Positions 2,574 to 54,820 of a DNA stretch of 64,000 bases are shown piece by piece. Positions within the stretch are counted from its first letter, which is position 1; each line of letters begins with the position of its first letter. Below the pieces are notes generated by a model. That model had not been told where the DNA came from. It saw only the letters and a list, made by a program, of their open reading frames with translations, and ran no database searches. Origin of the DNA: Ministeria vibrans ATCC 50519 (taxonomy: Eukaryota > Protista > Filasterea); assembly GCA_943704425.1 (NCBI GenBank), contig CALSCP010001679.1, positions 35,813 through 99,812 of the forward strand, given 5' to 3'. The position numbers and the translations under genes are program-made.

Positions 2574-5500
2574 TCATTTGTCAAAACCGTGTTTCACACA
2601 AAAGAGCCACTCAAAAGCCCGCTTCTTTCCACCAGCATTCTTCTCTGCCTTCTCTTGCTCTTCCTTCAAAGCCAAGACAGCGTACTTGCCATCCTTTCGC
2701 TTACGCACCCGACCGTGCGCCTGGATACACTTGCGTACAGTCTGGCTCGGCTCGGTGCGCACCACCAACTGACAGCTGCTCACATCCATACCCTCCTCCA
2801 CCACGTCTGTGGCAACAAGAATGTTCGTCTGGCCGTCTTCCGTGAAATCTTTCAGTTTCTCTTGCTGAATTGCACGCGACATACCCCTCATGTGAGGCGT
2901 ATCAGACTGACCCGTAATAAAGTCGGTGTAGAGCCCATGCTGTTGGTGGCGCAGGACCCACTCGAGGAGACATGTCGCGAGTTTCTCCTGTGTGAGCACA
3001 AGGATACGCTTCGCACTCGACTCGTCGGCTTTGAGGTTCTCCAGCAGCTGGTCCACAAGTGAACTGGTCCCCTTGCCTTCACTGCGCGCCGCTTTCACAT
3101 AGTTCACTTGGCCCAGCGTGAGCGGTGTCTTCGCATTGCCCACTCGCTGAAGACAGTCAGACAGGTAGACAGCGGCGGCACGGGCACCAAGGTTCTTAAG
3201 AACACAGAGCGCCAGGCGCCCAACACAACCTAGCGGTGTCTTCGTGGCGCCAGACTTGGCTGTTGGGCCTTTGGTGAGCATCTCGTACAGATGGAGCTCA
3301 TGATGGTCAGGTTTCCACTGCCATACCGCCGACGGCACATCAGTTGCATAAGCTTGCAAGACATCGCGATACTTGCTTGGCGGGCACAAAAAAACGGCAG
3401 GCACTGTCGGTATCACCGCTAGATTTCTCATAAGCGTCTGACGACCAGCTTCAAACGTATCCCTCTGAGCCCACTTCTCATCGGCAGTCGGAGTGGCAGA
3501 CAAGGCGAGCACACGCAGTGAAGGCGCACATTTTGCATTTGAAGTGCGGTAATTTTCTCGGATAAGACTCATAATCGCTGAGTACTCCGACTTCTACACA
3601 AGTAAATGCATGGATACTGGAATGAGAAAATCGGAAGAGAAATTATTCAAATGTACCTTTCGCGTGTGGTGAGCTTCATCAAAAATGATTAGCGAGACAT
3701 CGTCAAGGGAAAGAGCGGGCTTCTGCAAATCGACAGAAGGACCAGCTGAACCAGACAACAAAGAAGAATGTGGTTCTGTAGCTGAAGACGCAGGTACTGT
3801 GGAAGACGTAGTGGTTGTTGTTGAGGTTGTTGTTGTGGTTGTTGCTGAGCTGCTGGTGATGGTGGTGGTGGTGGTGGTGGTGGTGGAGGTGGCGTTGACT
3901 AATAGTGTGGGTGCAATGGTCTCACGGAAGCAGGCGGGTGTTGCAAAGAAGACGTCGTACGAGTCCGTCGAGAGCCGTTCGAGCATGTTCCGGTCAGTGA
4001 TAGTGGTCGAGCGTGCCTCCCAATGAGCATCAAAGAAGCGCTTCTGCTGGAACACTGGAAGAAAAAATTTAATAATAAAATATTATTAATATAATTTTAT
4101 TATTATTATAATATTAATAAAGTAATATGTAACGATGTCAGTCACACTTTCTTTTTGGTTTGGTTTGGTTTGGTTTGGTTTGGTTTGGTTTGGTTTGGTT
4201 TTTTTGTTTTTTTTTTTTANNNNNNNNNNTGGTTTTTTTTTTTTTAGTTTTTCTTGTTTTTGTTTTCTTGCTTTTTCGCATACCAAGTTGGTTGGTCGGG
4301 GCCAAAAAGACAATTTTCTTCGTAGAGTCGAAGTGAAAGACCTTGTGGGCCCAGTGAAGAGCCACAAATGTCTTACCTGCGCCGGTGGGCAGGTAGAGCA
4401 GAACGGATTTAACGGAAGGGTCGTCGCTCTTCAGTAGTTTTTTAAAGCAGTCGTTCTGGAAATCATAAAGAACAGGCAGTTTCTTCTTCTGCTCATTCGT
4501 TCCATTGCATTTTTCTGAGTCGCTTCTGATCTCTTTGTCTCGCTCGTATTCTGCATCTGCTCTGAGTATCCGATCGACTCTCTGCATCTCGTTCTTCGAT
4601 CGCTTTCGTTCTGCTTCCTCCTCCGTGCCTTTGACGTTCTCGGAAATGGGCTCGGGTGGCTCCCACGACATGGCGGGCACAAGGTTGGGAGCGGTGACAC
4701 GAAGGATGATTTCGTCGCGATCGGAGCGGCCGACAATGTGCCAGGCGTAGGCGCGACCGGAGTTGGAACCTGAGCTGGAGGCAGCATTGATAACAGAAGT
4801 AGAGTTGCTGCCATCGACCTTAAGCTTGGAGTTGTCTTGCTTGACAGGCTGTCCTATCGAAAGCACAGTAGCATCTGAGAACCGCTTTGCAGGAAGGTGG
4901 ATGTATCCGAAGACGAGGCAGGTGCAGAGGGTGCACTTGTTGCCGAGTGGATCGGCACCGCTTGTGACGCCTGTCACAAAGTACACTGACTGAGTGGCTT
5001 CGTCGTCGTCAATCTTGTGCGAGCAGCAAGTGAACTTGAGATTTGGATGACGTGTTTCACCGACAATGTCGCCGACTTCGGGCTCGTGTTGCTGGTCGCT
5101 GTACCACGGCAGAGTGATGGTGAACTGGCCCTCAAAATCGGGGTCGAGGTCACTGGCGTCACATGTAAGTCTGCGGACGACTCTGGCTTCGCTGAATGAA
5201 ATGTGCGTGCGTTGTGATAGGGCTTTGAGGTCCTCTAAATAGCGTTGACCGTCGGGCAAGGGCAAGGACTCAACAACCTCCCGCATGAGCTCAAACAGGC
5301 TGCGGTGCTCGCTTTTCCCAATCGGCGTGGCGCAGGTGAGATGACACACATTGTCATTGCGAAACTTGAGCAACTTTCTCAATCCAGAACGAGGAAAGGC
5401 ATCGCCTCCAATGCGCGTGTAGACAAAGAGTGCGCCGAGCTTTGAAAAATCGTGCTCTGACAGCTTTTCGCCCAACTCGGGACTGATGGTACAATCTTGC

Positions 5501-5901
5501 ACGAGCATGAGGAGGCGCGCGGGGGTGCTCGCAAGGTGGACAATGTGCTGGGCCAAGTCCTTGAATGTGATTGGGACGCGAGTTTCTTTCTTCTTATTCT
5601 TTTTCTTTTTGCGTTTCTCCTCACTTTCAGTTTCCGTTTTAGTTTCTACAATGAGCGGCGGGAGAGCAACATCAAGCGACAGTTTCGACATAAAGGCGGC
5701 GCACCCATTATCTTGAGTATGCTTTGTAGGAAATGCCGTGTGGAGTGCAGCAACGTCGAGGGCGGTGGGCGTTGGCCCAATTCCAGATATCACCGCCTCA
5801 AACGCAGTATCGGCTGCTTTTTGCAGGGCCGGCAGCACATGAAAGAAAATGCCATGGTACGCCAACAAGGCGTATGACTTAGGGGGGGAGATGTCGGACA
5901 T
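2574..5901 (-). CDS. RIG-I/Dicer-family SF2 helicase with N-terminal putative HEPN domain, paralog A (~1011 aa; exons 5901-4284, 4054-3657, 3593-2574)
   Basis: Spliced frame is continuous through all helicase motifs: LPTGAGKT (I), LAPTNQLVFQQ (Ia), IIFDEAHH (II), LALSATP (III), ILVLTQ (IV), ILVATDVVEEGMDVSSCQLVVR (V), CIQAHGRVR (VI). N-terminal helical region contains KFRNDNVCHL. Confidence 0.88.
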
Positions 5902-5940
5902 GGAAATGAAAAATAATTATGATTAATTTTTACTTGGAGT

Positions 5941-8839
5941 TTAGTGCGTCTCTTTCCGTATACTCGAATAGATTCGTTGAAAGACAAGAAGATTGCCAAG
6001 GGCATTCTTCTCCGCTTTCTTTTGCTCGTCGGGATTCTCTGTCAAGACAGCATACTTCGCTTCGTGGTAGTTCACCTCGCGAATTCGACCGCGCGCCTGC
6101 ACACACTTGCGCACCGTCTGGCTCGGTTCGGTACGCACGACCATCCGACAGCGACTCACGTCGAGGCCCTCCTCCACTACGTCTGTCGCTACGAGAATGT
6201 TGGTATTACCCTCTTTGCGACTGAAAGCAGACCGCTTCTGCCCCAGCATACTCTGCGACATTCCCTTCATGTACAGCGAATCCGATTGACCTGTGATAAA
6301 GTCAGAGGAAAGTTTGTGCTGTCGATGGCGCAGAGCCCAATCAAAAAGACGCGCTGAGAGCTTCTCCTGTGTCAACACAAGAATACTGTCCGCGGCAGAG
6401 TCATCCAGTTTTGACAACAAAGTCTCTGTCAGCGAACTCAAGTAAGGGGACGTCCGGTTCCGTTCACGCGCCATTTTCACTTGATTCATTTGGCCAACCG
6501 ACAGCGGCATTGGGTGCTCAACAAACTGAAAACAGTCTGTAAGGTAGACGGCGGCAGCTGGAGCTCCAAGAACTTTGAGCACGCACAGTGCAATGCGCGC
6601 AATATGGTTCAGCTGGGAAGCAGCAAAGGTGAGCAGCTCAAACATGTCACGTTCGTGTTCGTCGCGAGTCCAATCCCACACGTCCGACTCTACTTTGCTC
6701 ACATAATCTTGCAGTTCCTCCATGTACTCGTGCGCGGGGCACACAAAGGTCGCAGAGCACATTGGATCGGCCGCAATGTTCTCCAAGAGAGCGCGGTACC
6801 CATTCATAAAGTCAACTTCTGTAGCGTACTTGTCATGAGCACACGGTGTCGCTGTGAGACCCAGCACTCGCAGCGCAGAGGTGCCATTAGATGCAGCGAC
6901 GCTTGCGCGAATCATTTTGGCAATGTCGTGGTAAGGCGCGCTCTGGGAAACGTCATTAGCAAAAAAGAAAACATGGGGACGAAAGTATCAGTTCAAAAGC
7001 TCGATTGTTTCATCACACCTTGCGAGTGGCATGCGCCTCATCAAAGATCACCAGAGAGACGTCGTCAAGATTGATGGCGGGCTCAACCAGAGAGAGGTTG
7101 TCGTTGTTCTCAAGGGCATTCTTGAAGCAGCCGGGAGTGCAGAAGAGCAAGCGGGAACCAGAGGGAATGGGCGTCTCGTTCAGCTCCTCTTCCATTGTCA
7201 GCGTCGAATGAGGCTGGTTGAGGTGCGATGTAAAGTAATACTCCTGCTGTAGCACTGAATCATATCAAACAAACACGCATTTTTAAAAAGTATGTAAGTA
7301 GGGACTTAGTGAGAGGGAGAGGTGAATACCAAGTAAGTTGGTCGGCGCAAGAAAGACCACTTTCTTATTGGGGCAATCGTGAAGGGCTCTGCGAGCCCAG
7401 TGGAGAGCCACGACTGTCTTTCCGGCGCCAGTGGGCAGGTAGAGAACGTGAGCACGCACGGAGAGGTTGCTCTCCAGCTGGTCGTAGCAGTTTTGTTGGT
7501 AGGAGCGTAGCTTTGGAAATGAAATGTTGCCACTGGGTGTCTTGTTGTTGTTGTTGTACCGGAAGTCAGCTTCCTTGCGGTCCTCCCGAGCCTTGACGGC
7601 CAATTTGAGTTTCCACTGTTGCACATTGGAGTTGCCGACGGTAGAGGAGGCGGGGGCGGACCATAGCAAGGGCGGAACAAGATTCGGGGCTGTCACACGA
7701 ACGATGATCTTTCCACTGTCGTCGTTGGATAAGCCGGCAATGAACCACGCATAGGCGCGACTGTGCGCAGCGTCAGATGTGGCGTAGCCTACACGACTGC
7801 CCTTGTCGTCACCATAGTCTACAGCTCGGAGAGCTTGGCCGACTGGTAGAATGTCGGCGTCCGAGTGGAACCGGTCGGTGTTGAGATGGATGTAGCCAAA
7901 GACGAGGCAGGTGCAGCGGATACAAGGGCGCCCGCTTGGATCTTCGCTGTCTGCAATGGCCGTCACAAAGTACGTGGGACCGTCGGGCACAAGCTTGTAC
8001 GAGCAGCAAGGGAAGTTGAGTTGCGGATGAAGCATTTCACCGACAATGCCGCCGACTTTGGGCCTGTGTTGCTGGTCGTTGTACCACGGTAGGGTGATGG
8101 TGTATTGACTCTCAAAGGTAGGATCAAGATCGCAGGCGTTGCGTGTCAATGTGCCGACCAATTGAGTTCGGGCACTGAGAGGAAGAGAGCGGGTGCGTGA
8201 CAAGTCGTCCAATTTGGCGACGAGCTCTTCCTCGCCGGGATGCAGCGCCTTGACAACCGTTTTCATAACGGAAAACAATTCCACGAGCTTCTCCTCATCA
8301 ATTTTTTTCGGGTTCGTCAGGTGGCACACGTACTCTGCACGAAATTTGAGCAGTTGGCTCAACTCGTCGCGGGGAAATCCGTCGCCGCCGATGCGGGTGA
8401 AGCTGAACAGGGCGGCAAGTACAGAAAAATCGTAGCATGAGAGCTTGTCGCCCTTCGCTGGACAAAAACTTAAGCCCTTAACGAGCATGAGAAGGCGCGC
8501 TGGCGTGTCCTCAAGATGAACGTAGAAGAATTGTAATTCCTCAAATTTGATTTCGGGAGACAAGGAGGCAACGCAAAGCGACAGCCTCGACATGAACTGA
8601 TTGAACTCGCGCTGGGAGTCTTTGAGTTCTTTCTTGTTAGGGTTAGAGTTAGGGTTAGGGATCTTGGGAAACGCCGTGTGGAGTTCGGCGAGGGTGCGGG
8701 CTTTCAGCGATGGCCCAAGTTCGAGGATGAGCTGCTGCGCTTTGGTGTCTGCCGCCCGTTGCAACGCCGGCATCACATTAAAGAAAATACCCATGTAAGC
8801 CAACACGGCGTACAACTCGGGAGGAAGAATGTCCGGCAT
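5941..8839 (-). CDS. RIG-I/Dicer-family SF2 helicase with N-terminal putative HEPN domain, paralog B (~915 aa; exons 8839-7330, 7254-7019, 6942-5941)
   Basis: LPTGAGKT, LAPTNLLVLQQ, VIFDEAHA, LGLTATP, ILVATDVVEEGLDVSRCRMVVR, CVQARGRIR. Same two intron positions as paralog A. N-terminal KFRAEYVCHL. Confidence 0.88.
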
Positions 8840-8947
8840 GGGAGAAATATGACTGTTAAAGTAAAATAATTTAATTATGAATGATCCAATAATTACTTGA
8901 TTCAATAAAATCAACTCCACTTCTTTCGATTGCCACGTAAGCCGAAA

Positions 8948-29241: not shown

Positions 29242-30064
29242 TTACACTGCGGAAACGGAGCGCAATCGAATTGACATGTCCTTGGCCGGAAAGCGAGTCA
29301 ACGACGTTTGCGAGCGTGTCAGCATTTTGGGGTCCTTTGCATCGCATTGCGCCACAAAAATCGACACCTGAAGCTCCTCGAGTTGGTCGACAATGCGCAC
29401 AAAGGAAGGACGCATGCGCGGCTGGGAGTGCCAACATTGCTCAATAAGCACGCGAATCGACTCGTACGTCGCATCCTCAAGGTAAAAGTGTGGTCGCTGT
29501 CCGCGCGTCACTGCCTCCTCGACATCCCATGTGTTCTCCAGCTCCTCAAAGGGCAGTCGTCGCTCAAGCAGCTCATATAACACAATACCAAAGGAGTACA
29601 CATCCGCCGGCGCACCATATGTGGCTCCCTTCAATATCTCAGGACTACACAGAGTATCAGCTCCAAAACACACCGGAAATAGTGTTCGAGTTCGTACCTT
29701 TGCCACAACAGTGTCCCCACATAGGTCGTGAGAATCCGGTTGTTATGGCTCAGGCTTGCCTGCGGCACAGCCGCCGTTTCCAGTCCATCGCGCGTCTTCG
29801 GGTTCTGTCGAAGTCGCGACCGACACGACCCCTCTCCACAAATACCGTCTTCTTCCTCCACTGCCTCCAAGTTGCACAGCAGTCGAGCAGTGCCAAAGTC
29901 TACAAAAAGGAAATAGAATAAAAATAACAATAATATAATTATAAGAAAAAAAAATTATTAATAAAGAATCAATAAAATAATATCAATAATAATTAATAAT
30001 AAAATTAAATTTTATTATTATTATTATTATTATTATTTTTAAAAAAAGAAAAAGAAAAATATAC

Positions 30065-30110
<46 letters not shown>

Positions 30111-33100
30111 GTAATAATAATAATACACTCAACAAACTCCGCTGTGAGTTCAGCCGTCTCATATACTACTTACCTGCAACTTTCACAATATGACCGTGAC
30201 CCACCAGCAGATTGCGTGACTTGAGGTCGCGATGCATAATGGGCGGCACAAGGCCATGAAGGAAGCGCATTCCCTTGGCCGCGTCCACGGCAAAGCGTAG
30301 TCGTGTCTCCATGGGAAGCAGGTCTTCACACACAGTTCGCTCCGTCTCATCGCCATAGAGGATCGAGTAGAGCGAACCGTATTCGAGATACTCCGTAACG
30401 AGAAACGGCACTTGATTGGAGGTCACACCACTGCCAAAGAACAAGACCAAATTTGGATGTCGCACACTCCGCAAAAACCGCACTTCACGATCAAACTCTT
30501 GCGACGCCAACGAGTCTGATTCAAGCACAGCGCGTCGCAACATTTTAACCGCTACCACACGCCCACTCCAGTGCGCCTGATACACATCCCCAAATGCCCC
30601 ACTGTCCACCAGCGCTAAATCAGACAGTTCGCTCTCGGGAATGTGCCACACTCGCTCCAGTTCGGCCACATGCGCGCGCGACAAATCAACCTCCTCGTGT
30701 GCGTCGTCCAACAGTCGCTCATACAAAGAGTGCTGAAGAAAAAAAAAATGTAAATAATAATGTCTTGTGAGTGAGTAATTATAATAATATTTTGTGTGTG
30801 CGGTTGTGTGTGTTTGGGTCTGACTTGATAAGTGAGCTTTCGAGATCGGCGCGCCACAAGTGTGATAATCACAATGCAACCCACAAGCAGAAAAAAAGCA
30901 ACAATGCCAATAATGACCCAAGGAGTCTGACAGTGATCACTGGCCAGGTAGCCAAAGGGACAGTCACATAAAATGCCCAATCCCTGACTCAACACGCGAC
31001 ACTGACCGGCGTGACACGCTCCCTCGTCACACACGCTGCAATCGCTCTGGTCCACTGATCCAGTGCTGGGCGTACTCGCGTGCACAGGACACTGCAGACA
31101 CGAATTCATCCCCAAATCGGGCGAGAAGGTCCCAACCTAAGAAATAAGTTGATAATGATCATCGATCGTGATTGAGAGCAAAAGAGGCTTACTTCACAGG
31201 GTAAGCACGGCTCGCTGAAAAAGTTTCTTGACGAAGTGCCCAATTCGCAGGCTGGTGTAAACTCAAGTGTGCCCGCAAATGGTCCGGGGCCGCCAAAGAA
31301 GATACTACATTTGCCGACAAGTCAAATTTAATCCTTATAAACGCACAGAACACACACACACAATATATATATATACAAAACACTTGACTCTTTCTCACAC
31401 ACTTTCGTACAGAGTAACCACTTGAGTGCTCGTCGCATTCACATCAATGGAACGCACTCCCTTGACTGCATACAGTGGCGCAGGTCGATCGGTCGTCACA
31501 AGCTCATACCATTGTTCAGTTATCACATCGAACTGAAAAAAAAAACATAATTATGATTTAATCATTGTTAATTTGAGTATATTACCTGCCACATATCATT
31601 GAAGATTATTCCGTTCGTTCCACGACCACCAAAGACAAATACTTTTGATGGAATTGAAACCATTGCAAAGAATGTTCGGTTTTGCGGTCGATACGATGGA
31701 AAAAGCTACAAAATTCAAAGATGAGGGGGCTTCGACCAATTAACGAATGCAATATACCTCGGTCCAAAGGTGAGTTGCTGCGTCGTATAGCCATCTATAA
31801 ACACGGAAAAATAAAAATAATATCAAAACAAAAAATTCTCACTTGCTCTATCTCTATCTCTTGGTTACTCCTTCTCTATCTTTCTCTTTTTCTCCCTCCT
31901 TTCTCTCTCTATCACTTTGTTTCTTTCTCATCTCTCTATCACTTTGTTTCTTTGTCCTCTCTCTCATTTTGTCGTACAAATCATTGAGAATGAACTCTGC
32001 GGCATCTTCAACGACCTGACCGGCAAAGAGCAGAGCTTGCGTGCCACTGCGCACACTCGCAATTCCATGACCAATGCGATCGCGGGGCGTGTGTGGACAC
32101 AGATACGACGTCCAATGAAGCGTCTGCAGATTCCACTCGTACGTTATGGGCTGACGGTCTTCAATAATAAAGTTGCCACCGCCAAACATGAGCATCAGTG
32201 GCGCGCCCATAGTGCTGGTCAGGAGTGCCCCAACCGCACTCGCGCATACTCCAGGCACATCCCCAGTCGACGTGACACTCTGCCAACCCGTCTCAAACTC
32301 AAACGTCCACGAGTCATTGATAGGACCGGACACGCCAAACCCACCAAACATGTACACTCGGTCGTTCCATGTAGTCCATGCCATGGAACGACGCGCGGGA
32401 GGCACAACGGGAAAAGCCAACTGACGCCATCGCGACTCACTGTCAAGAATCCACGAGTCTACAATGTACACAATAGTTGTGTGTGTGTGTGTGTTTTTTT
32501 TTTTATTTTTTTATGTTTGGTTTGTTGGGAGCGAGAGAGTTTGTGTTGGGAGCGAGAGAGTTTGTGTTGGGTACGATCGTATCTTTTACAATACCTGAGA
32601 GCATATTAAGTGGACCCTGCGTCTGACTGCCACCGAAGGTGAAAAGTCCATTCGAGAGCATGGAAAGCAGGTGAAACTGTCGCTGAGGGGGCTGGGATGG
32701 AGGATCAAGTGACTCCCATTGGTTCACACTCTGAGATGGATGGTACGCCCAAATCTGCGACGTAGGCGAGTAGATGCCGCCAATCTGTTCGCCGCCAAAA
32801 AGAACAATGTACTTGGACGTGCCCAAGGTAGCAAAGTCACGCATATTCAAGGGCATACTCGTGGTGGTGCGCACTGTCCAGGTGTCGGTGGAGGGCGAGT
32901 AGGCGTACGACTCGAGAAGGAGGGTGGAGAACGCGGCGCCAAAGACAAAGAAGTTGCCGTCGTACGCGGCCGAACCTTGCCACGTAAATGTGGTGGGGTC
33001 AACAAAGGGTGCTGTGAGTGACGCAAGCGGGGTCCATGTCACCTGCGATGCATTGAATCGCCACAAGTCGCTGAGTGGAGCGCCAAAGGAGTCGAGGCCG

Positions 33101-33865
33101 CCACCGAGATAGGCAATTCCATCTACCACGGAAGATTGGCCTTCATAGCGTGCAGCAGGCCAGTCCGTGGGCGTCTTATAGAGACGCTCCCAACGATTCA
33201 ACGACGGCTCATACTGCCAGAGATCGTCGAGTACCGCTGACGAGACGGACAGGCCGCCGAACACAAAAAGTTGCGGAGTCGTGACGTTCACAACAAAGGC
33301 CAAGTGGCGTTCCCGTGGGGCGGGTCGAGGCTGAAGCTGAGGGAGCAGAGTGTACGCGACGGTACCGTCGACGTGGTTAGCGTCGAGTCTCCACAGAGTG
33401 TTGAAGAGCGTCGGTCCGCTGTGGTTCGCCGGCTGATTCACGCCGCCAAAGAGAAGCAGACCAGGACCGCCCGGAATGAACGACAGAGTCGCGCCTGACC
33501 TGGCGGTGGGCACGGCCGTCGTCAGCGGCTCGAGATTGAGCCAGAGACCCACCTGCGTGCGCCACATCCACGCTCGACCAAGCGAGCAAGCGCAAGTGTA
33601 GTTGTACCCTCCAAAAATCACCATGTTCGACGCGTTGGTGATGGCTGCCGCCGTAAACCCTCTCGCATACGGCTGGTACGGAAAGGTGGCCGCCGTGTTG
33701 AAGTTGTTAAACACTTTGGTCGCGTCCAGTGGCTGTAGGAGGGCGGAAGGAGAGGCAACGGAGGAGTTGAAGGTGAGTTGAAGGTGAGTTGTCGAAAAAT
33801 TGTCGCACCAGAACCACAAGAATCACAATGATTGCCGCGACCGCGCGGAGAGGCGCGTGTATCAT
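29242..33865 (-). CDS. Single-pass receptor kinase: signal peptide, Kelch/galactose-oxidase-type repeats, Cys-rich (GCC2/GCC3- and EGF-like) region, TM helix, TKL kinase; multi-exon, 3' end approximate
   Basis: MIHAPLRAVAAIIVILVVL signal peptide; repeated FGG...W Kelch units (LLLFGG, LFVFGG, VYMFGG); CLQCPVHAST..DC..C..CDCPFGY; TM WVIIGIVAFFLLVGCIVIITLV; SGAFGDVY, VAVK, HRDLKSRNLLV, DFG, DVYSFG. Confidence 0.88.
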
Positions 33866-47213: not shown

Positions 47214-48087
47214 CACGTAAAAAAAAAAAAAAGTAAAGACTAAAGTCTCTATTGACTGACTGAATCCATGATCTTTTAGTGATCGATCACTGATCACTCA
47301 GTTCTGTACGAATGAAACAAACGTCGTGGGCTCGCATGAGCATTGGGCAATGATCAATGCTAAGTTGGTACTGGGTACCCTGTCAATACTAAGTCTATCT
47401 TATGACTTGTGTTTGTGTTCACACTAAACCATCTACATTTAGTACGCATTATCATAAACTCCCACTGTACACATATAAGGCAGATGAACCTTTTGAAACT
47501 ACACACTAAATTGAACTGAACTGAACTTATCGTGAGAATTCTCAGAGACTTATACTAGTCCTTTCCGTTGTGTATTGATAGTGATGCGCTTAGACAAACA
47601 GGGGATATTATTCTTACATGCAGAGGTCTTCGGAGTGCGTTGTCGCCATGTAGGCGCGCCATTGTGACTCAAAAGTACCCCTCCCTTCTTCAGGCTCCTC
47701 GTTCGCGAAGCAAGCCTATGACAAGAAGATCAATACACAATAAGACCAAAGAGGTTGACGGTATCTGAATGAGTGCTTACTTCGGAAACGGTTGAGGGTT
47801 TTCTCAAGGGCGACGGCGGAGGCGCTTGCGGTGCAAGTCGTTCCATTAGAATGTCGGTCGAATTGACGAGGCATGCAGCTGCACAGCGAATGCGAGACAG
47901 TCAGCAGATCACTCCAAAAGCGCATTCGAGGCGCCAGAGTGGCCCAACGGCGCACCCTGGACACAAAACAACCCCTCCACACAACATCATAACACACACC
48001 ACTAATGTACATGCGTCATCCGACACACCATATATATCGCGTTTCGATAACACCCAAAGTCAACGCCTGAGAGGTCANNNNNNNNNN

Positions 48088-49224
48088 CACAGGCCGAGTA
48101 CAAGGATACTTTCAAGCCTACTCCTCCGCTTCATCAACACCCCCCTTGCGGCGCCTCCGTCTGCGTCTGCCGCTGAGCCGGCGGCCCGCTGGCTGCGCGT
48201 CGGTGCTCTCGTGCGCTTCCTGGTAGGCTTCCTCGCGACGTACGTTGTCTTTGCGCTCGCGACCGCCATGCTCTTCGCCTCGTCCGTTGCCGACGGCGCC
48301 CGTCTCGGCTTTGGCGCCCTCTTCATGGCTGCTGGCTTTCTGGCCTGGTCGGGCCGTCTCGATCCGCTTGCGCTGCCCGTCTTTGCCGATCCGCTGCTCA
48401 TGGGCTTCTCGTATGCCCTCCTCGTCACCGTCAACCCCTGCACCGTGCCCTTCCTGGCCTTTGTCCTCTCCCTCCACACCCACCATGCTCTCCCGGCCCT
48501 CCTGGCCTTTGGCTGTGGCCTCGTCTCGCCCGCCGTTGCCTTTGCGATCATCGGCCGTTCGGCTCTCTCCTTCTTCCGCCGCAACGCACAACTCCTCAAC
48601 CGCCTCAACCGCCTCATGAACATCGTGCTCTTCTGCAGCGGCATCTACGTCGCCGCCGGCACCTGGCTCATCACACCAGCCAACACCGTCGTCAGCGGCG
48701 TCTGTCTCATCGCCTCACTGCGTCTCCTCTTCACGCGCTCCTTCGATCCCGCTCTGCCCACCACTCGCTGGCGCCAACTCGCCCTTGTGCTTGCCTGCAC
48801 CACCACCTCCATCTTCATCACCCTCTGCCCCCTGCCCTTCCTCCACGACCAGTCTCGCCACGCCTTCATCGCCCTCGTCCTCAACACCGACCCTAGCACC
48901 AGCCACTCAGACGACTCCTTAGACACCGACGACGACGACTCATGGCTCGCCACCGTCAACACCACCACCACTGCGACAGACCTCAACGTAACCTCCGACA
49001 CACCTACGCTTACCAGTGACTCAACTCTTCCCTCTCTTCTTCTCCCTTGCGACCCCCAGACGTCACTCAGTCCCACCGGTGGCTGTGCTCCAATCGACTT
49101 ACTCGATCCATGCGATACATGTCAAGTCTGTCTTGCGCTCTATCTGCTTGCCGTCGTCTCCGTTGCGCTCTCGCTTGCAATGCACTTGAGGGCCACTCTC
49201 AAGAAACAAGCATTGCCCACGTAG
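48088..49224 (+). CDS. CcdA/DsbD-like (cytochrome c biogenesis-type) polytopic membrane protein; 5' end lost in the N gap
   Basis: Intron-free, GC-rich, hydrophobic ORF with GFSYALLVTVNPCTVPFLAFVLS...LLAFGCGLVSP...NRLMNIVLFCSGIY, matching the pattern around the second conserved PC of CcdA. C-terminal Cys cluster and a TM helix follow. Confidence 0.55.
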   Translation, partial: HRPSTRILSSLLLRFINTPLAAPPSASAAEPAARWLRVGALVRFLVGFLATYVVFALATAMLFASSVADGARLGFGALFMAAGFLAWSGRLDPLALPVFADPLLMGFSYALLVTVNPCTVPFLAFVLSLHTHHALPALLAFGCGLVSPAVAFAIIGRSALSFFRRNAQLLNRLNRLMNIVLFCSGIYVAAGTWLITPANTVVSGVCLIASLRLLFTRSFDPALPTTRWRQLALVLACTTTSIFITLCPLPFLHDQSRHAFIALVLNTDPSTSHSDDSLDTDDDDSWLATVNTTTTATDLNVTSDTPTLTSDSTLPSLLLPCDPQTSLSPTGGCAPIDLLDPCDTCQVCLALYLLAVVSVALSLAMHLRATLKKQALPT

Positions 49225-50925: not shown

Positions 50926-53900
50926 TCAACTCTCTGGGTCCGTTCCGTACTCACTCTCGTCGGTGCTGAAATTCACATCGAGCAACGGCGCACTCAGCTC
51001 TTTCTTGACGACGTCGGCATACGTGAGCGGACACAACACTCCCTCTGCGTCTCCCACCGCCTCCTCCCCCTCCTTTGTGTTCTCGTCCACTTTCTCTGTC
51101 GGCATGGATGTGTTGCGTATCGTCTCAACACTCGCACGAATAGGACGGGGCAGGCAGAAGCGGAATGGGTAAAGGAGACGCGCAAGACGGAGGGTCTCCG
51201 ACGAGTCCTGGAGCACGTCGCGCGCACAGCGAAATGCCTCGAGAAAGTGCGACATGTCACTCTGAAAGCACTCAGTGGTCAGTTTGTCGGGCGACGAGAG
51301 GGTAAAGAGCAAATTGGAATAGTGCATAACATAGCGACGGGTCGCAGTCAGACGCAGAGTGGCATCGACCATCAAGTGGCGCACAGTCGAGCGCAACAGG
51401 TCATTCTGCGCAAACCGCAGTCCGTCAAAGGTCAACAATGACTCCTCCACTAGCCCAAAGAGCAGTTCTTCTGTCTCCTCCACAGGCAGCGCAAAGACCG
51501 AGGCAGCCGCACACGGGTCAAACGGAGTGGCAAAGATCGAAAGAAGCATCATGGAACTCTGAACGAGAGAGAGAGTCAGTATATCACGAGATCGATGAAA
51601 GAGTGAAAAGGACCTTTTGCTCTTGTTCGAGCAGATTGAACGTCTCAATGAGCCCAATGGATTCGGCGAGTTTCGCTTTGGGGTGATCTGCAGACTCATC
51701 GGGCGCACTGAGGCGCGCAAGAACACCCTCAATGCGACTGAGTGAGAGGCGTTTAAGCTGCGAGCTGAGCACACGAATGGCAAGTGGGAGGAAAGACGCA
51801 GCACGAGCAAGTTGGAGGGACAGCGAAGCAGTTAGGGATGGTAGGAAATAATGCACGAGCGACAGACTAGTAAAAGTGATGGAGAAGGGAAAACGAACAG
51901 AGAGAGAGAAAGAGAGAACGTGATGGAATTGAGTAAGTGATTGACTAAAGTGTGTGTTTTTCTACCTTGATTCCTCTGATAGCTCACCAATTCGCCTAAA
52001 CCACACACACACAAAAAAAAAAACAATATTAAGCAAAAAATAATAATAACGATAACTTTGGTACAGATTGAGTGCGTTTGGCGCAAAAGACTCAATTTCA
52101 ATGCGACGCCGCGATGTCACCAACACAAGAGCATCGTGTGCGCGCGGAAGAAGATCCTATGTTGACACACAACATTCATCATCAAACACCAAAAAAATTA
52201 TTATGGTCAAAGTGCGTGACTCTTACAGTGACAAGAGAGAGATTGGAACAGTTTTCAATCACAAGAATTGAACGTTTTCCGCTAAACACGTGGTTGTATT
52301 CAGAGCGAATATGCCCACTGTCCTTTCGATCAATGTGCTACAAGAGAGAAAATTCAATTCGATAAATTAAAACTTGATTCGTTTGATCACTTGTTTTACC
52401 TTTTCCGGGAATTTGGTGTGAATAATAATCGTCATAGCGTCTTCAATGGATAAATACTGGAGCAAAGATAGAGAGAGAGAGAAAGGAAGGAGAAAGAAAC
52501 AAAGTGATAAAGAGAGAGAGAAAGAAAGGAAGGAGAAAGAAACATAGATAGAGAATAAGTAGTTAATCTATTGCAAAATCGACAAAATTAAAAGACGAAT
52601 AATTTAATGTACTTTGTCGTTTTCAAACCCTTTGAGACTGACAAAGAGCCAATTGTGCGGGAAAATGGGTCTGAAACGCTCAGCCAATCTCTGAGCGAGA
52701 GCGGATTTACCCGCACCGGCAGGACCAAAGAGACAGACCACGTGACAGCTCACGCGCGAAGACGAAAAGACGCGCTGTTCAATCAACTAACAGACAGCAA
52801 CAGAAAAGTAAGAAGGGATAAGGAACAACAAAAAGAGATAGAGGAAGGCAGGGAGGGAGAAGAATCGTAAAGGAAGAGAAAACAAACGAGAAAGCGTGAG
52901 GGTCAAAATTGGCACAATAATGAAACACACAAAGATAAATTAATACTACTAATCCTACATGACAATCAGGTAGATAGAAAAAACTTTACACGTAGTATTG
53001 TAAAATGACAACCCGGCATAAAAAGGGGGTTTGTTTGTACCTTAATTTCGGATTCTCTGCCAACCAATTCCGGCGAGACAATCTCAGTGTCCTCATTCGC
53101 ACTTGCGTTGACTTTCCACGCGCGAGACAGTCTCTCTTGCACAAGTGACACATCTAGTACCTGAAATAGCCAATAATTAAAGAGGCTTCTGACGCTTCGG
53201 TGGATCAGATTGTGCTCTCACTTCAACAGAGCCGTCGCGTTTGATGAATGCGTGTCCTGTGTTGTTGAAGTAGACGGGCGAAATTCCCTTCGAGACATGA
53301 ATCTCGAGAACAAAGAAGTCCGGTTGGTCGTCTGCGTTGTACTCGCGACGTCCCTTGCGCTGCTGCTGCTGGTGGTGCTTGGACGACGCAACTTCGTCAA
53401 TGTACATCTCAATCTCGTCGTCGTGTAGTCGTGCGCCTTTGCGTCCCTTTTTGCTTTTGATTGGGGATGTGGGTGATCGAGCTTGCTGGGGATGGTGGGA
53501 TCGTTGTACAGGTACAAGGCGGACGCGCAACAATGACGGATCAACCTACAACAGAGTCTGCACAGTGAACTTATCACTGGAGTTTCATACCTGAGGACGA
53601 AACTGCCCAATCTACAAAAGCGAATGCAACAAATGAGTCCAACGCACCCCCAATCGGTTGCCAGTGCACCCAAGTACCTGTGAGTCGATAGTCAAGTGGA
53701 TGTCGTCGCGCTGCTTGCGCGTAAGCAGCATTCCGCGCACAACGCCATTGTCTACACACCACACGAACTCACATCGACCAAACACCCACTAAGCACCACA
53801 TTCCGCGCACCTTCAATGCCGCAGTACAACGTCCCGCCGTCCGTATTCTACAAAGACGCCCCAGGAGTCAGCCGCAGTGCCGTGGGAGCGCACAGAGAGC

Positions 53901-54055
53901 GTACGAGAAAGGCATTGACATATTTCTTGACGTGCACAGCGACAAGACCCGACGTGCACCGCTTGAACTCATGGTACCGGTCCTCCTCCATCACCACTCG
54001 CTCCCCTTTGACATAGAAATCACGTTCGTCCATAACGACAAAAATTAGGAGAAAG

Positions 54056-54089
<34 letters not shown>

Positions 54090-54820
54090 GGCTGACACGA
54101 GAAAAAAAAAAGGAAGAATAAGGAGTGAGACGTACGGATGGGGTCAGCGGGGAGGGAGGGGGGTAAGAAGTCGTGGAGGAAGTGGTGGTCCAAGTCCATG
54201 GGGTCGGGGTGGTCGGGGGCGGACAGGGGCGGACTGGCTGCCGCTGTCGTCGGGTTGGAGACGGAGCTGCGTCGGGAGCCAAAGCTCGACGGCGTCTCGT
54301 CGTGCGAGCAGCCCGCCGTCCATGCCCGCACGTCGCTCATCCGGTCGCACCACGACGCTACACCATCCCGTTAGTATTGCGCAGCCGATGAGTCACGCGA
54401 TGAGAAACGCTTTAAAAAAAATTTTTTTTTCACACACACACACAGAGACAGAAGGAGACGCAACAACCACTCGGACTCCATACCGGTCTGTAGCATAGTG
54501 GTCCAGTACGCAGGGGCTGACGTGCTATCCGTGAAGGCGCCTTTCCTTCGTTTCTATAAGCAGAGTGTTTAATATATTCAGCGTGTCGCATTTTTTTTTT
54601 TTTTTTTGAAAAAGCAATGAGGAGAGCGTACGGAGAGGGAATGAGGGAGGGAGGCAGGATCGACATCTTCGGGGGCAGCATCGTCGAAGGTAGACGAGCG
54701 GCGTTTGTGCGAGCGACGGCACGAGATGGAGATAGGGAGACTCGAGCCAAAGGCGGGCGCGCGCTCTTCGGGCGGCGATGCGGACGTCCACGAGCCGCTC
54801 GAGGGCGAGGGGGTATCCAT
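50926..54820 (-). CDS. Schlafen (AlbA_2, SLFNL1-type) domain fused to a STAND/NB-ARC NTPase, multi-exon
   Basis: EEDRYHEFK..KYVNAFLNTDGGTLYCGIEDNGVVRG..FRPQV..VLEIHV..AFIKRDGSV. Then LVGRESE, GPAGAGKSALA (Walker A), FSGKRSILVIEN (Walker B), DLLP..VLVTSR, FLPLAIRV, FNLL..F..PFD. Includes a 21-nt microexon at 53591-53611. Confidence 0.85.

Follow-up and report, generated by a model that had tools for sequence, protein, structure and literature searches.

Proteins in which a HEPN domain precedes a nucleoside triphosphatase (NTPase) sensor are represented in animals and Capsaspora by the DZIP3/hRUL138-like (PF18738) and CXorf38-like (DUF4559, PF15112) families. The described partners of these HEPN domains are NACHT, TPR, ankyrin, CARD, DEATH, LRR, RING, and double-stranded RNA (dsRNA)-binding (dsRBD) domains, and not a helicase of the type found in Dicer and the RIG-I-like receptors (RLRs) (PMC3710099, PMC9646362, PMC8260672). 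Presented here are two genes, A and B, located in a window of 64,000 nucleotides (nt) from the filasterean protist Ministeria vibrans ATCC 50519 (GenBank assembly GCA_943704425.1, contig CALSCP010001679.1, positions 35,813 to 99,812 of the forward strand; coordinates below are those of the window). Each is predicted to encode an N-terminal HEPN domain, a beta-rich middle domain, and a superfamily 2 (SF2) helicase that is probably of the Dicer/RLR type. With the DZIP3- and CXorf38-like proteins, A and B share the N-terminal position of the predicted HEPN domain before an NTPase, an R-x4-6-H motif, an upstream Asp spaced as in CXorf38, and local duplication. Neither of the Pfam models PF18738 and PF15112 matched the domains of A or B, whether whole or trimmed, at E values up to 10.

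RIG-I, MDA5, LGP2, and nematode DRH-1 belong to the same SF2 family as the helicases of A and B, have similar motifs IV to VI, and likewise carry an N-terminal effector. The RLRs, however, contain a C-terminal domain (CTD) and CARD or DED domains, whereas A and B lack these, have a shorter insertion domain, and carry a predicted nuclease in place of the signaling domain. Dicer, which provides the closest helicase matches, also combines an RNA motor and a ribonuclease (RNase) in one polypeptide, but its RNase III lies behind the helicase, whereas the predicted HEPN domain of A and B lies in front, and PAZ, DUF283, and dsRBD domains are absent. RNase L and Ire1 are activated by dimerization and contain a kinase or pseudokinase domain, and RNase L uses the 2-5A messenger produced by OAS. 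A and B would likewise be switched on by dimerization of a HEPN RNase (the KEN domain present in RNase L and Ire1 being a type of HEPN; PMC3710099) but would differ in holding sensor and nuclease in one chain, with neither kinase domain nor ankyrin repeats.

Described HEPN fusions include bacterial ones with restriction-type SF1/SF2 helicases and nematode ones with an inactive Vasa-like domain (PMC3710099). Of these, the bacterial DUF4145 HEPN–EcoEI-like SF2 and the nematode HEPN–Vasa-like proteins also hold a HEPN domain and an SF2 helicase in one chain, but the helicase is of another kind (a DNA restriction motor and an inactive DEAD-box half, respectively), as are the HEPN families involved. 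The main text of that paper, as available, contains no occurrence of "RIG-I." TRADD-N partners in cnidarians and brachiopods include HEPN and RLR-like receptors (PMC8195603), and according to a review, RLRs were found in animals only (PMC6723221). The available text of the literature searched yielded no account of a HEPN domain joined to a Dicer/RLR-type helicase; this literature was one that held few subscription papers (and included PMC9334734, PMC12165695, and PMC7384945). The combination of a HEPN effector with an NTPase sensor is already known; new here are the Dicer/RLR-type sensor, the nonanimal host, and the additional middle domain.

Genes A and B are head-to-tail tandem paralogues (Table 1) with 42.5% identity over 1,029 aligned columns and no internal stops in either. 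All intron borders are GT..AG, and in the alignment the intron positions and phases are common to both genes (phase 1 after helicase motif Ia and phase 0 after motif II). Comparison of the gene models with contigs from four public sequencing runs indicated that both genes are transcribed and spliced as modeled, because contigs joined three of the four introns exactly (A intron 2 in one of the four runs, B intron 1 in one, and B intron 2 in three). The evidence is direct for those three introns; no contig bridged A intron 1, which contains repeats and an N gap, and contig ends matched its borders at 4054 and 4284. At least half of the sampled sequence words were present in 8 of 16 listed runs, one of which was a seawater metagenome run; small word shares in runs X10 to X12 were not counted as evidence. 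The seawater occurrence, the short introns, and the compact spacers suggest a unicellular eukaryote. Both genes are under purifying selection, with ratios of nonsynonymous to synonymous substitution rates (dN/dS) between A and B of approximately 0.19 to 0.33 in the N-terminal, middle, and three helicase parts and 0.54 in the short tail, values that are rough since dS (1.0 to 2.6) was near saturation; the ratio was not computable in the linker. A reading of A and B as a single gene was ruled out, as 39 nt separate the stop codon of B from the ATG of A and none of the contig joints skips this stop. Within the 64-kb window, A and B were the sole tblastn matches.

Each protein consists of a helical N-terminus of about 230 amino acids (aa), a beta-rich middle domain of about 160 aa, and an SF2 helicase, with identities between A and B of 50%, 56%, and 45 to 63%, respectively. 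Pfam matches in A and B were to ResIII/DEAD and Helicase_C only, with none to CARD, RIG-I C-RD (PF11648), PAZ, or RNase III. A CTD is absent, because only 42 and 45 residues follow motif VI in A and B, compared with 194 to 195 in two amphioxus RLRs. An initial annotation of this DNA had reported two paralogous genes with identical intron positions; a helical N-terminus with an upstream D-x-S-x-L...(K/Q)LLKF pattern and the motifs RNDNVCH (5361-5341) and RAEYVCH (8341-8321); and a helicase with no CARD, RIG-I CTD, PAZ, or RNase III domain. All of these features were found in the sequence, the upstream pattern as DFSxL...LLKF; the Cys-rich beta domain of about 160 aa between the two parts and the degenerate motif of B had been missed.

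The N-terminal domain probably adopts a HEPN fold, judging from language-model neighbors and structural models. An R-x5-H motif follows a predicted helix (residues 157 to 170) in both paralogues, and D, R, and H occur at the same spacing in A and B, with an Asp-to-Arg spacing of 30 in both. HEPN motifs are described as having a polar residue (N, D, or H) after the Arg (PMC3710099); such a residue is present in A (Asn182) and absent from B (Ala168). The pattern R-[NDH]-x3-5-H occurred in 14% (A) and 6% (B) of 10,000 shuffled sequences. In an atlas of language-model neighbors, residues 1 to 240 of B matched most closely a cluster at 0.97 (218 of 256 features) in which 11% of members carry DUF4559/CXorf38; shuffled sequences reach 0.95 about once in 100. 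The next clusters, at 0.96 and 0.95, carry HEPN_DZIP3 on 11% and 21% of members, and a cluster at 0.94 carries HEPN_DZIP3 on 38% and DUF4559 on 37%. The clusters carrying these families are eukaryotic, and a bacterial cluster at 0.87 carries HEPN_Swt1 on 92% of members.

When an AlphaFold2 model was searched against 48,161 chains, HEPN folds made up 12 of the top 50 rows, most of them aligning to B residues 1 to approximately 205. The best natural chains were Csm6 (4rgp; Z score of 6.7, root mean square deviation [RMSD] of 4.9, 110 residues aligned) and AF0298 (2hsb; Z score of 6.1, RMSD of 3.3, 98 of 126 residues aligned). Two Csm6 chains, 2jpu, Roquin, HepS, 1ufb, and 5yep were counted on our assumption that they are HEPN folds. 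Structures 2hsb, 2pbe, and 3c8g are listed as HEPN structures, and GlnE and AbiF are named HEPN families (PMC3710099). An ESMFold2 homodimer of B residues 1 to 240 scored 0.54, compared with 0.00 for the best of three controls, with at least 38% of contacts common to the runs and a predicted local distance difference test (pLDDT) score of at least 59. Of homodimers modeled in this way, 21 of 30 from microbes and 17 of 29 from eukaryotes attained the mark, compared with 0 of 23 and 0 of 30 monomers, respectively. The modeled interface comprises helix 1 and residues 134 to 139 and 171 to 177, with D137 contacting H173 of the opposite chain, and in this predicted cross-chain His-Asp pair the two chains share a site as HEPN dimers are expected to do. 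The contact mirrors the H167-D134 dyad proposed for human CXorf38, in which the Asp-to-Arg spacing is 28 (preprint 10.64898/2026.05.28.728550).

The helicase is probably RNA type, lying on the Dicer/RLR side of its family, and from its sequence would be classed as Dicer/RLR type and, lacking a CTD, not as an RLR by definition. Both proteins retain intact ATPase motifs I, II (DEAH), III, V, and VI and have an insertion between the RecA lobes, and the helicase is compact (253 to 260 aa from motif III to motif VI, compared with 287 to 334 aa in six Dicer, RLR, Hef, and FANCM-like references). All top solved-structure matches belong to the RIG-I/Dicer/Hef/FANCM family. From 7,993 candidates, a profile of exon 3 retrieved seven distant proteins: a red-algal Dicer (the best sequence match), two FANCM-like proteins (a label assigned here from domain content and motifs), a Hef, two amphioxus RLRs, and one SNF2 protein, which scored 42.1 bits over the whole helicase. 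Against solved structures, the same profile, covering the C-terminal lobe, ranked an ancestral Dicer first (65.4 bits; this is a reconstructed ancestor, and such ancestors tend to score high), followed by RIG-I (51.4 bits), MDA5 (50.4 bits), LGP2 (48 bits), DCL4 (45.6 bits), Hef (40.2 bits), and FANCM (26.9 bits). Motifs IV to VI are Dicer/RLR-like, with motif VI having the Dicer/RLR form QxxGRxR and not the FANCM/Hef form QRxGRTGR.

In a 19-row tree, Hef and FANCM were separated from the query, RLR, and Dicer rows (support of 99/98), and no firm order of RLR, Dicer, and query was obtained (73/63); for this tree, 12 of 26 Hef loci were hand-picked, one was dropped because it had no motif match, P0004 was added, and SNF2 was left out. 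The separation of Hef and FANCM was retained without Dicer and five Hef rows (96/99) and without the RLRs and the same five Hef rows (95/96), and an approximately unbiased (AU) test rejected a clade of query and FANCM (P = 0.028). The initial annotation had proposed a DZIP3/CXorf38-like HEPN domain joined to an RLR helicase. The HEPN assignment, including the two named families, agrees with the atlas, the fold search (12 of the top 50 rows), and the homodimer model and is matched neither by Foldseek nor by any profile hidden Markov model (HMM), and the R-x-H signature invoked for it is canonical in A, has Ala after the Arg in B, and on its own is at chance level. The helicase did group on the Dicer/RLR side but is not an RLR proper, and its separation from FANCM/Hef was upheld in three trees and the AU test, with a thin reference set and an N-terminal RecA lobe that was indecisive.

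HEPN catalysis requires dimerization, in which two motifs are brought together (preprint 10.64898/2026.05.28.728550); Dicer-type helicases are described as clamping dsRNA; and in animals, relatives of this HEPN family serve NACHT immune receptors as their N-terminal effectors and also occur in fusions with dsRNA-binding domains (PMC8260672, PMC3710099, PMC9646362). A sensor and an effector combined in one chain is the simplest reading of A and B. Helicases would load onto foreign RNA that is double-stranded or structured; where several sat on the same molecule, their HEPN domains would meet and dimerize, and the active site shared by the two would cleave RNA, be it that of the invader or that of the cell itself. 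Gene A would provide the canonical R-N-x4-H site, and gene B, with R-A-x4-H, may be weaker or may act as a partner or regulator of A; more speculatively, the middle domain may take over the ligand-binding or autoinhibitory role of the RLR CTD. We infer the RNA ligand, the clustering trigger, the RNase activity, and the antiviral purpose from what is known of these families. That A and B encode an RNA-triggered, dimerization-activated, self-contained defense RNase is proposed as a tentative reading, with a probability approaching but not reaching even. In a more specific and more doubtful version, a single protein would make up the antiviral system of a unicellular eukaryote: viral dsRNA would be sensed by a Dicer/RIG-I-type helicase that lacks a CTD, and clustering would directly switch on the HEPN RNase, performing the work of OAS-RNase L or RIG-I-interferon without a messenger or adaptor; here, A and B may pair as an active/regulatory heterodimer, and a new ligand-sensing fold may be present in the middle domain.

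Several results weigh against a HEPN RNase triggered by RNA. When the N-terminal 240 aa were shuffled 10,000 times, an R-x4-6-H motif arose in 78% of the shuffles for A and 45% for B, and conservation of R and H was seen across two sequences only, of which B departs from the R-[NDH] rule. Searches with Pfam, NCBIfam, PADLOC, and PHROGs models gave no match to the N-terminal or middle domain at E values up to 5 to 10. The atlas recognition value for the N-terminal domain, 1970, was below the 2300 mark and so constitutes moderate evidence, and only 3 of the 10 best family matches shared a clan with the best one. All fold search Z scores were below 8, which for helical bundles perhaps reflects a mere shared arrangement; ranks 1 and 2 were designed GPCR-like bundles, and many seven-helix membrane proteins also scored. 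The AlphaFold2 models were poor, with pLDDT scores of 36 (exon 1, single sequence) and 43 (the searched model); Foldseek returned nothing at E values of ≤0.001, and a fold search with the single-sequence model gave no row recognized as HEPN. Among eukaryote homodimers that lack a solved relative, only 1 of 7 attained the homodimer mark, and B alone was modeled; its score may stem from resemblance to HEPN dimers of known structure and would then support the fold more than the binding.

On the helicase side, whole-helicase scores were tied (FANCM-like, 75.8 and 75.6 bits; RLR, 73.5 and 67.6 bits; Hef, 72.8 bits; Dicer, 72.3 bits), as were those for the motif I to Ia stretch (FANCM, 24.1; LGP2, 22.3), and motifs Ia and Ib are FANCM/Hef-like. 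All trees carry a long-branch warning and include one Dicer, two nearly identical RLRs, and two FANCM-like rows. A and B have neither a CTD nor a dsRBD that would secure specificity for dsRNA. The flanking genes are of housekeeping types (Ddi2-type, diphthamide synthesis, JmjC, ABC, CLC, kinesin, and RasGAP).

Among the other explanations, a Dicer-like processing enzyme survives best, though it is unlikely. Its HEPN dimer would be constitutive and would cut only the particular dsRNA or structured RNA that the helicase threads into it, such as RNA from a transposon, an antisense RNA, or a precursor, and the enzyme would serve silencing or the maturation of RNA. The Dicer helicase is described as binding blunt dsRNA ends and threading them to the nuclease, and Dicers supplied both the best solved helicase match (the ancestral Dicer) and the best sequence match (the red-algal Dicer); the isolated HEPN domain was modeled as a dimer with no ligand, and both genes were spliced in several unrelated runs. 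Tandem duplication, divergence of about 58%, and no detectable homologues nevertheless better fit a fast-evolving conflict gene, and the closest HEPN families are immune effectors (PMC8260672, PMC3710099, PMC9646362).

That D, R, and H keep the same spacing in two paralogues with 50% identity and meet across the modeled two-fold axis argues against a HEPN domain that is catalytically dead and serves only for dimerization or RNA binding, or against an unrelated helical bundle. On that explanation, which is quite unlikely, A and B would be dimeric RNA helicases or sensors signaling via partners, perhaps through the middle domain. It would account for the chance-level motif, the R-A of B, the lack of an HMM match, and the middling fold scores, and inactive HEPN-helicase fusions of nematodes have been proposed as RNA receptors (PMC3710099). 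A diverged FANCM/Hef-type DNA translocase that links an RNase toxin to branched or foreign DNA, such as stalled forks or a giant virus in replication, is improbable: it would fit the tied whole-helicase scores, the FANCM/Hef-like motifs Ia, Ib, and III, the best NCBIfam model (Hef, in a prokaryotic library with no Dicer or RLR model to compete), and the HEPN fusions to EcoEI-like SF2 restriction helicases in bacteria (PMC3710099), but three trees and the AU test place the queries outside Hef and FANCM, FANCM was the weakest family member in the C-terminal-lobe search, and motif VI is of the Dicer/RLR type.

The architecture underlying the proposed one-chain sensor and RNase has been seen in only one lineage so far. 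Residues 1 to 400 of B had no homologue among proteins of 882 to 2,515 aa (5,342 candidates), and a profile of the N-terminal and middle domains of A and B, searched with HMMER against 1,835,955,588 representatives, gave 0 matches at E values of ≤0.001. The 78-column motif core had no match at E values of ≤10 among 521 candidates, and no homologues were found in metagenome contigs, viral contigs, or PDB sequences or, by tblastn, in plasmids and phages. These searches do not prove absence, because they used a two-sequence profile or exact words. A Swt1-like bacterial HEPN protein, sought as a reference, was found in 0 of 5 genomes and 0 of 14 controls.

The middle domain has five Cys and three His residues common to A and B. 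In the atlas, it was closest to weak beta-trefoil lectin-like clusters (0.92, 93 to 113 of 256 features, recognition of 1511), by which a beta-trefoil identity is weakly suggested, as a lead only. A peptidase G2 (PF11962)/beta-clip domain was rejected (hhalign probability of 0.2% and E value of 0.28 against seven phage domains; A scored −0.5 bits, a value reached by 26 of 500 shuffles, and B was unscored), and the RIG-I CTD and Dicer DUF283 gave no match (hhalign probabilities of 0.06% and 0.09%, respectively, with shallow alignments). The middle domain also did not match the CTD of the two amphioxus RLRs. Two inserts occur in A only: in the first helicase lobe, motifs Ib and II are separated by about 55 aa rich in Thr and Ser (about 3760-3905), and the N-terminal domain carries a Lys/Glu-rich insert (5575-5660).

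Table 1. Coordinates of genes A and B and of their predicted domains and motifs in the window
Feature	Position	Strand	Details and basis
Gene B	5941..8839	minus	915 aa; exons 8839-7330, 7254-7019, 6942-5941; open spliced frame, joined introns
Gene B N-terminal helical domain, aa 1-232, predicted HEPN (CXorf38/DZIP3-like)	8144..8839	minus	Folded core about aa 1-205; atlas, fold search, homodimer model
Gene B motif R167-A-x4-H173 (RAEYVCH)	8321..8341	minus	Partner Asp137 at 8431-8429; sequence and dimer model
Gene B middle domain, aa 233-392	7664..8143	minus	Beta-rich; 56% identity to A
Gene B SF2 helicase (Dicer/RLR/Hef/FANCM family)	5944..7519	minus	Motif map, Pfam, PDB profile search, trees
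Gene B helicase motifs I, II (DEAH), III	7438-7415, 7042-7031, 6855-6847	minus	
Gene B helicase motifs IV, V, VI	6381-6367, 6189-6160, 6099-6079	minus	
Intergenic spacer	5902..5940	.	39 nt, AT-rich; stop of B to ATG of A
Gene A	2574..5901	minus	1011 aa; exons 5901-4284, 4054-3657, 3593-2574; open spliced frame
Gene A N-terminal helical domain, aa 1-241	5179..5901	minus	Predicted HEPN via 50% identity to B
Gene A motif R181-N182-x4-H187 (RNDNVCH)	5341..5361	minus	Canonical; partner Asp151 at 5451-5449; sequence
Gene A middle domain	4672..5175	minus	Alignment with B
Gene A SF2 helicase	2577..4479	minus	Motif map, Pfam, alignment
Gene A helicase motifs I, II, III	4392-4369, 3680-3669, 3500-3492	minus	
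Gene A helicase motifs IV, V, VI	3002-2988, 2813-2784, 2723-2703	minus	

Run X13 contained, besides contigs identical to A and B, others that were about 80 to 87% alike to both genes and differed in depth (window positions 2938-8945), one of which extends into the start of the neighboring gene at 8945, and run X7 contained a diverged B-like contig joined at the intron 2 donor. From these contigs, it follows that there are further paralogues or a second, diverged copy of the locus (from a related strain or species, or in a duplicated segment). In the diverged X13 copies, the codons of both motifs lie in stretches that did not align. In run X1, two low-depth plus-strand joints with GT..AG ends were found inside gene A, at 5164-5221 and 5332-5385, one of which spans the motif codons of A, with short sides of 29 and 21 letters; these joints are possibly from a spliced antisense transcript. 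Another X1 contig (5403-7255) runs from gene B across the spacer and about 500 nt into gene A and may represent the 3′ end of a B transcript overlapping the start of A, or two transcripts that were merged.

Elsewhere in the window, 12 of 15 scanned neighbor fragments had a Pfam match. A minus-strand fragment at 53848-54336 has a YHEFK...KKYVNAFL pattern, which we take to recall the Schlafen/AlbA_2 RNase domain, and had no Pfam match at E values of ≤0.01. At 29242-33822 on the minus strand, Kelch repeats, a Cys-rich EGF-like stretch, a transmembrane helix, and a TKL-type kinase were found, pieces that look like one receptor kinase. A long, intron-free, GC-rich open reading frame at 47773-49224 (minus strand), interrupted by an N gap, encodes a multipass membrane protein with a C-x-x-P-F motif that presumably recalls DsbD/CcdA.

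If the proposed reading of A and B is correct, it would bear on how single-celled eukaryotes detect viral RNA by means other than RNA interference: a Dicer/RLR-type helicase would have been used outside animals as a modular sensor with swappable effectors, and the DZIP3/CXorf38-like HEPN family would gain a simple system, with trigger and RNase in one chain, that could be assayed in vitro. A dsRNA-gated RNase contained in one polypeptide could also serve as a detection tool, and such a protein would bear on the divergence of the RLRs and Dicer.

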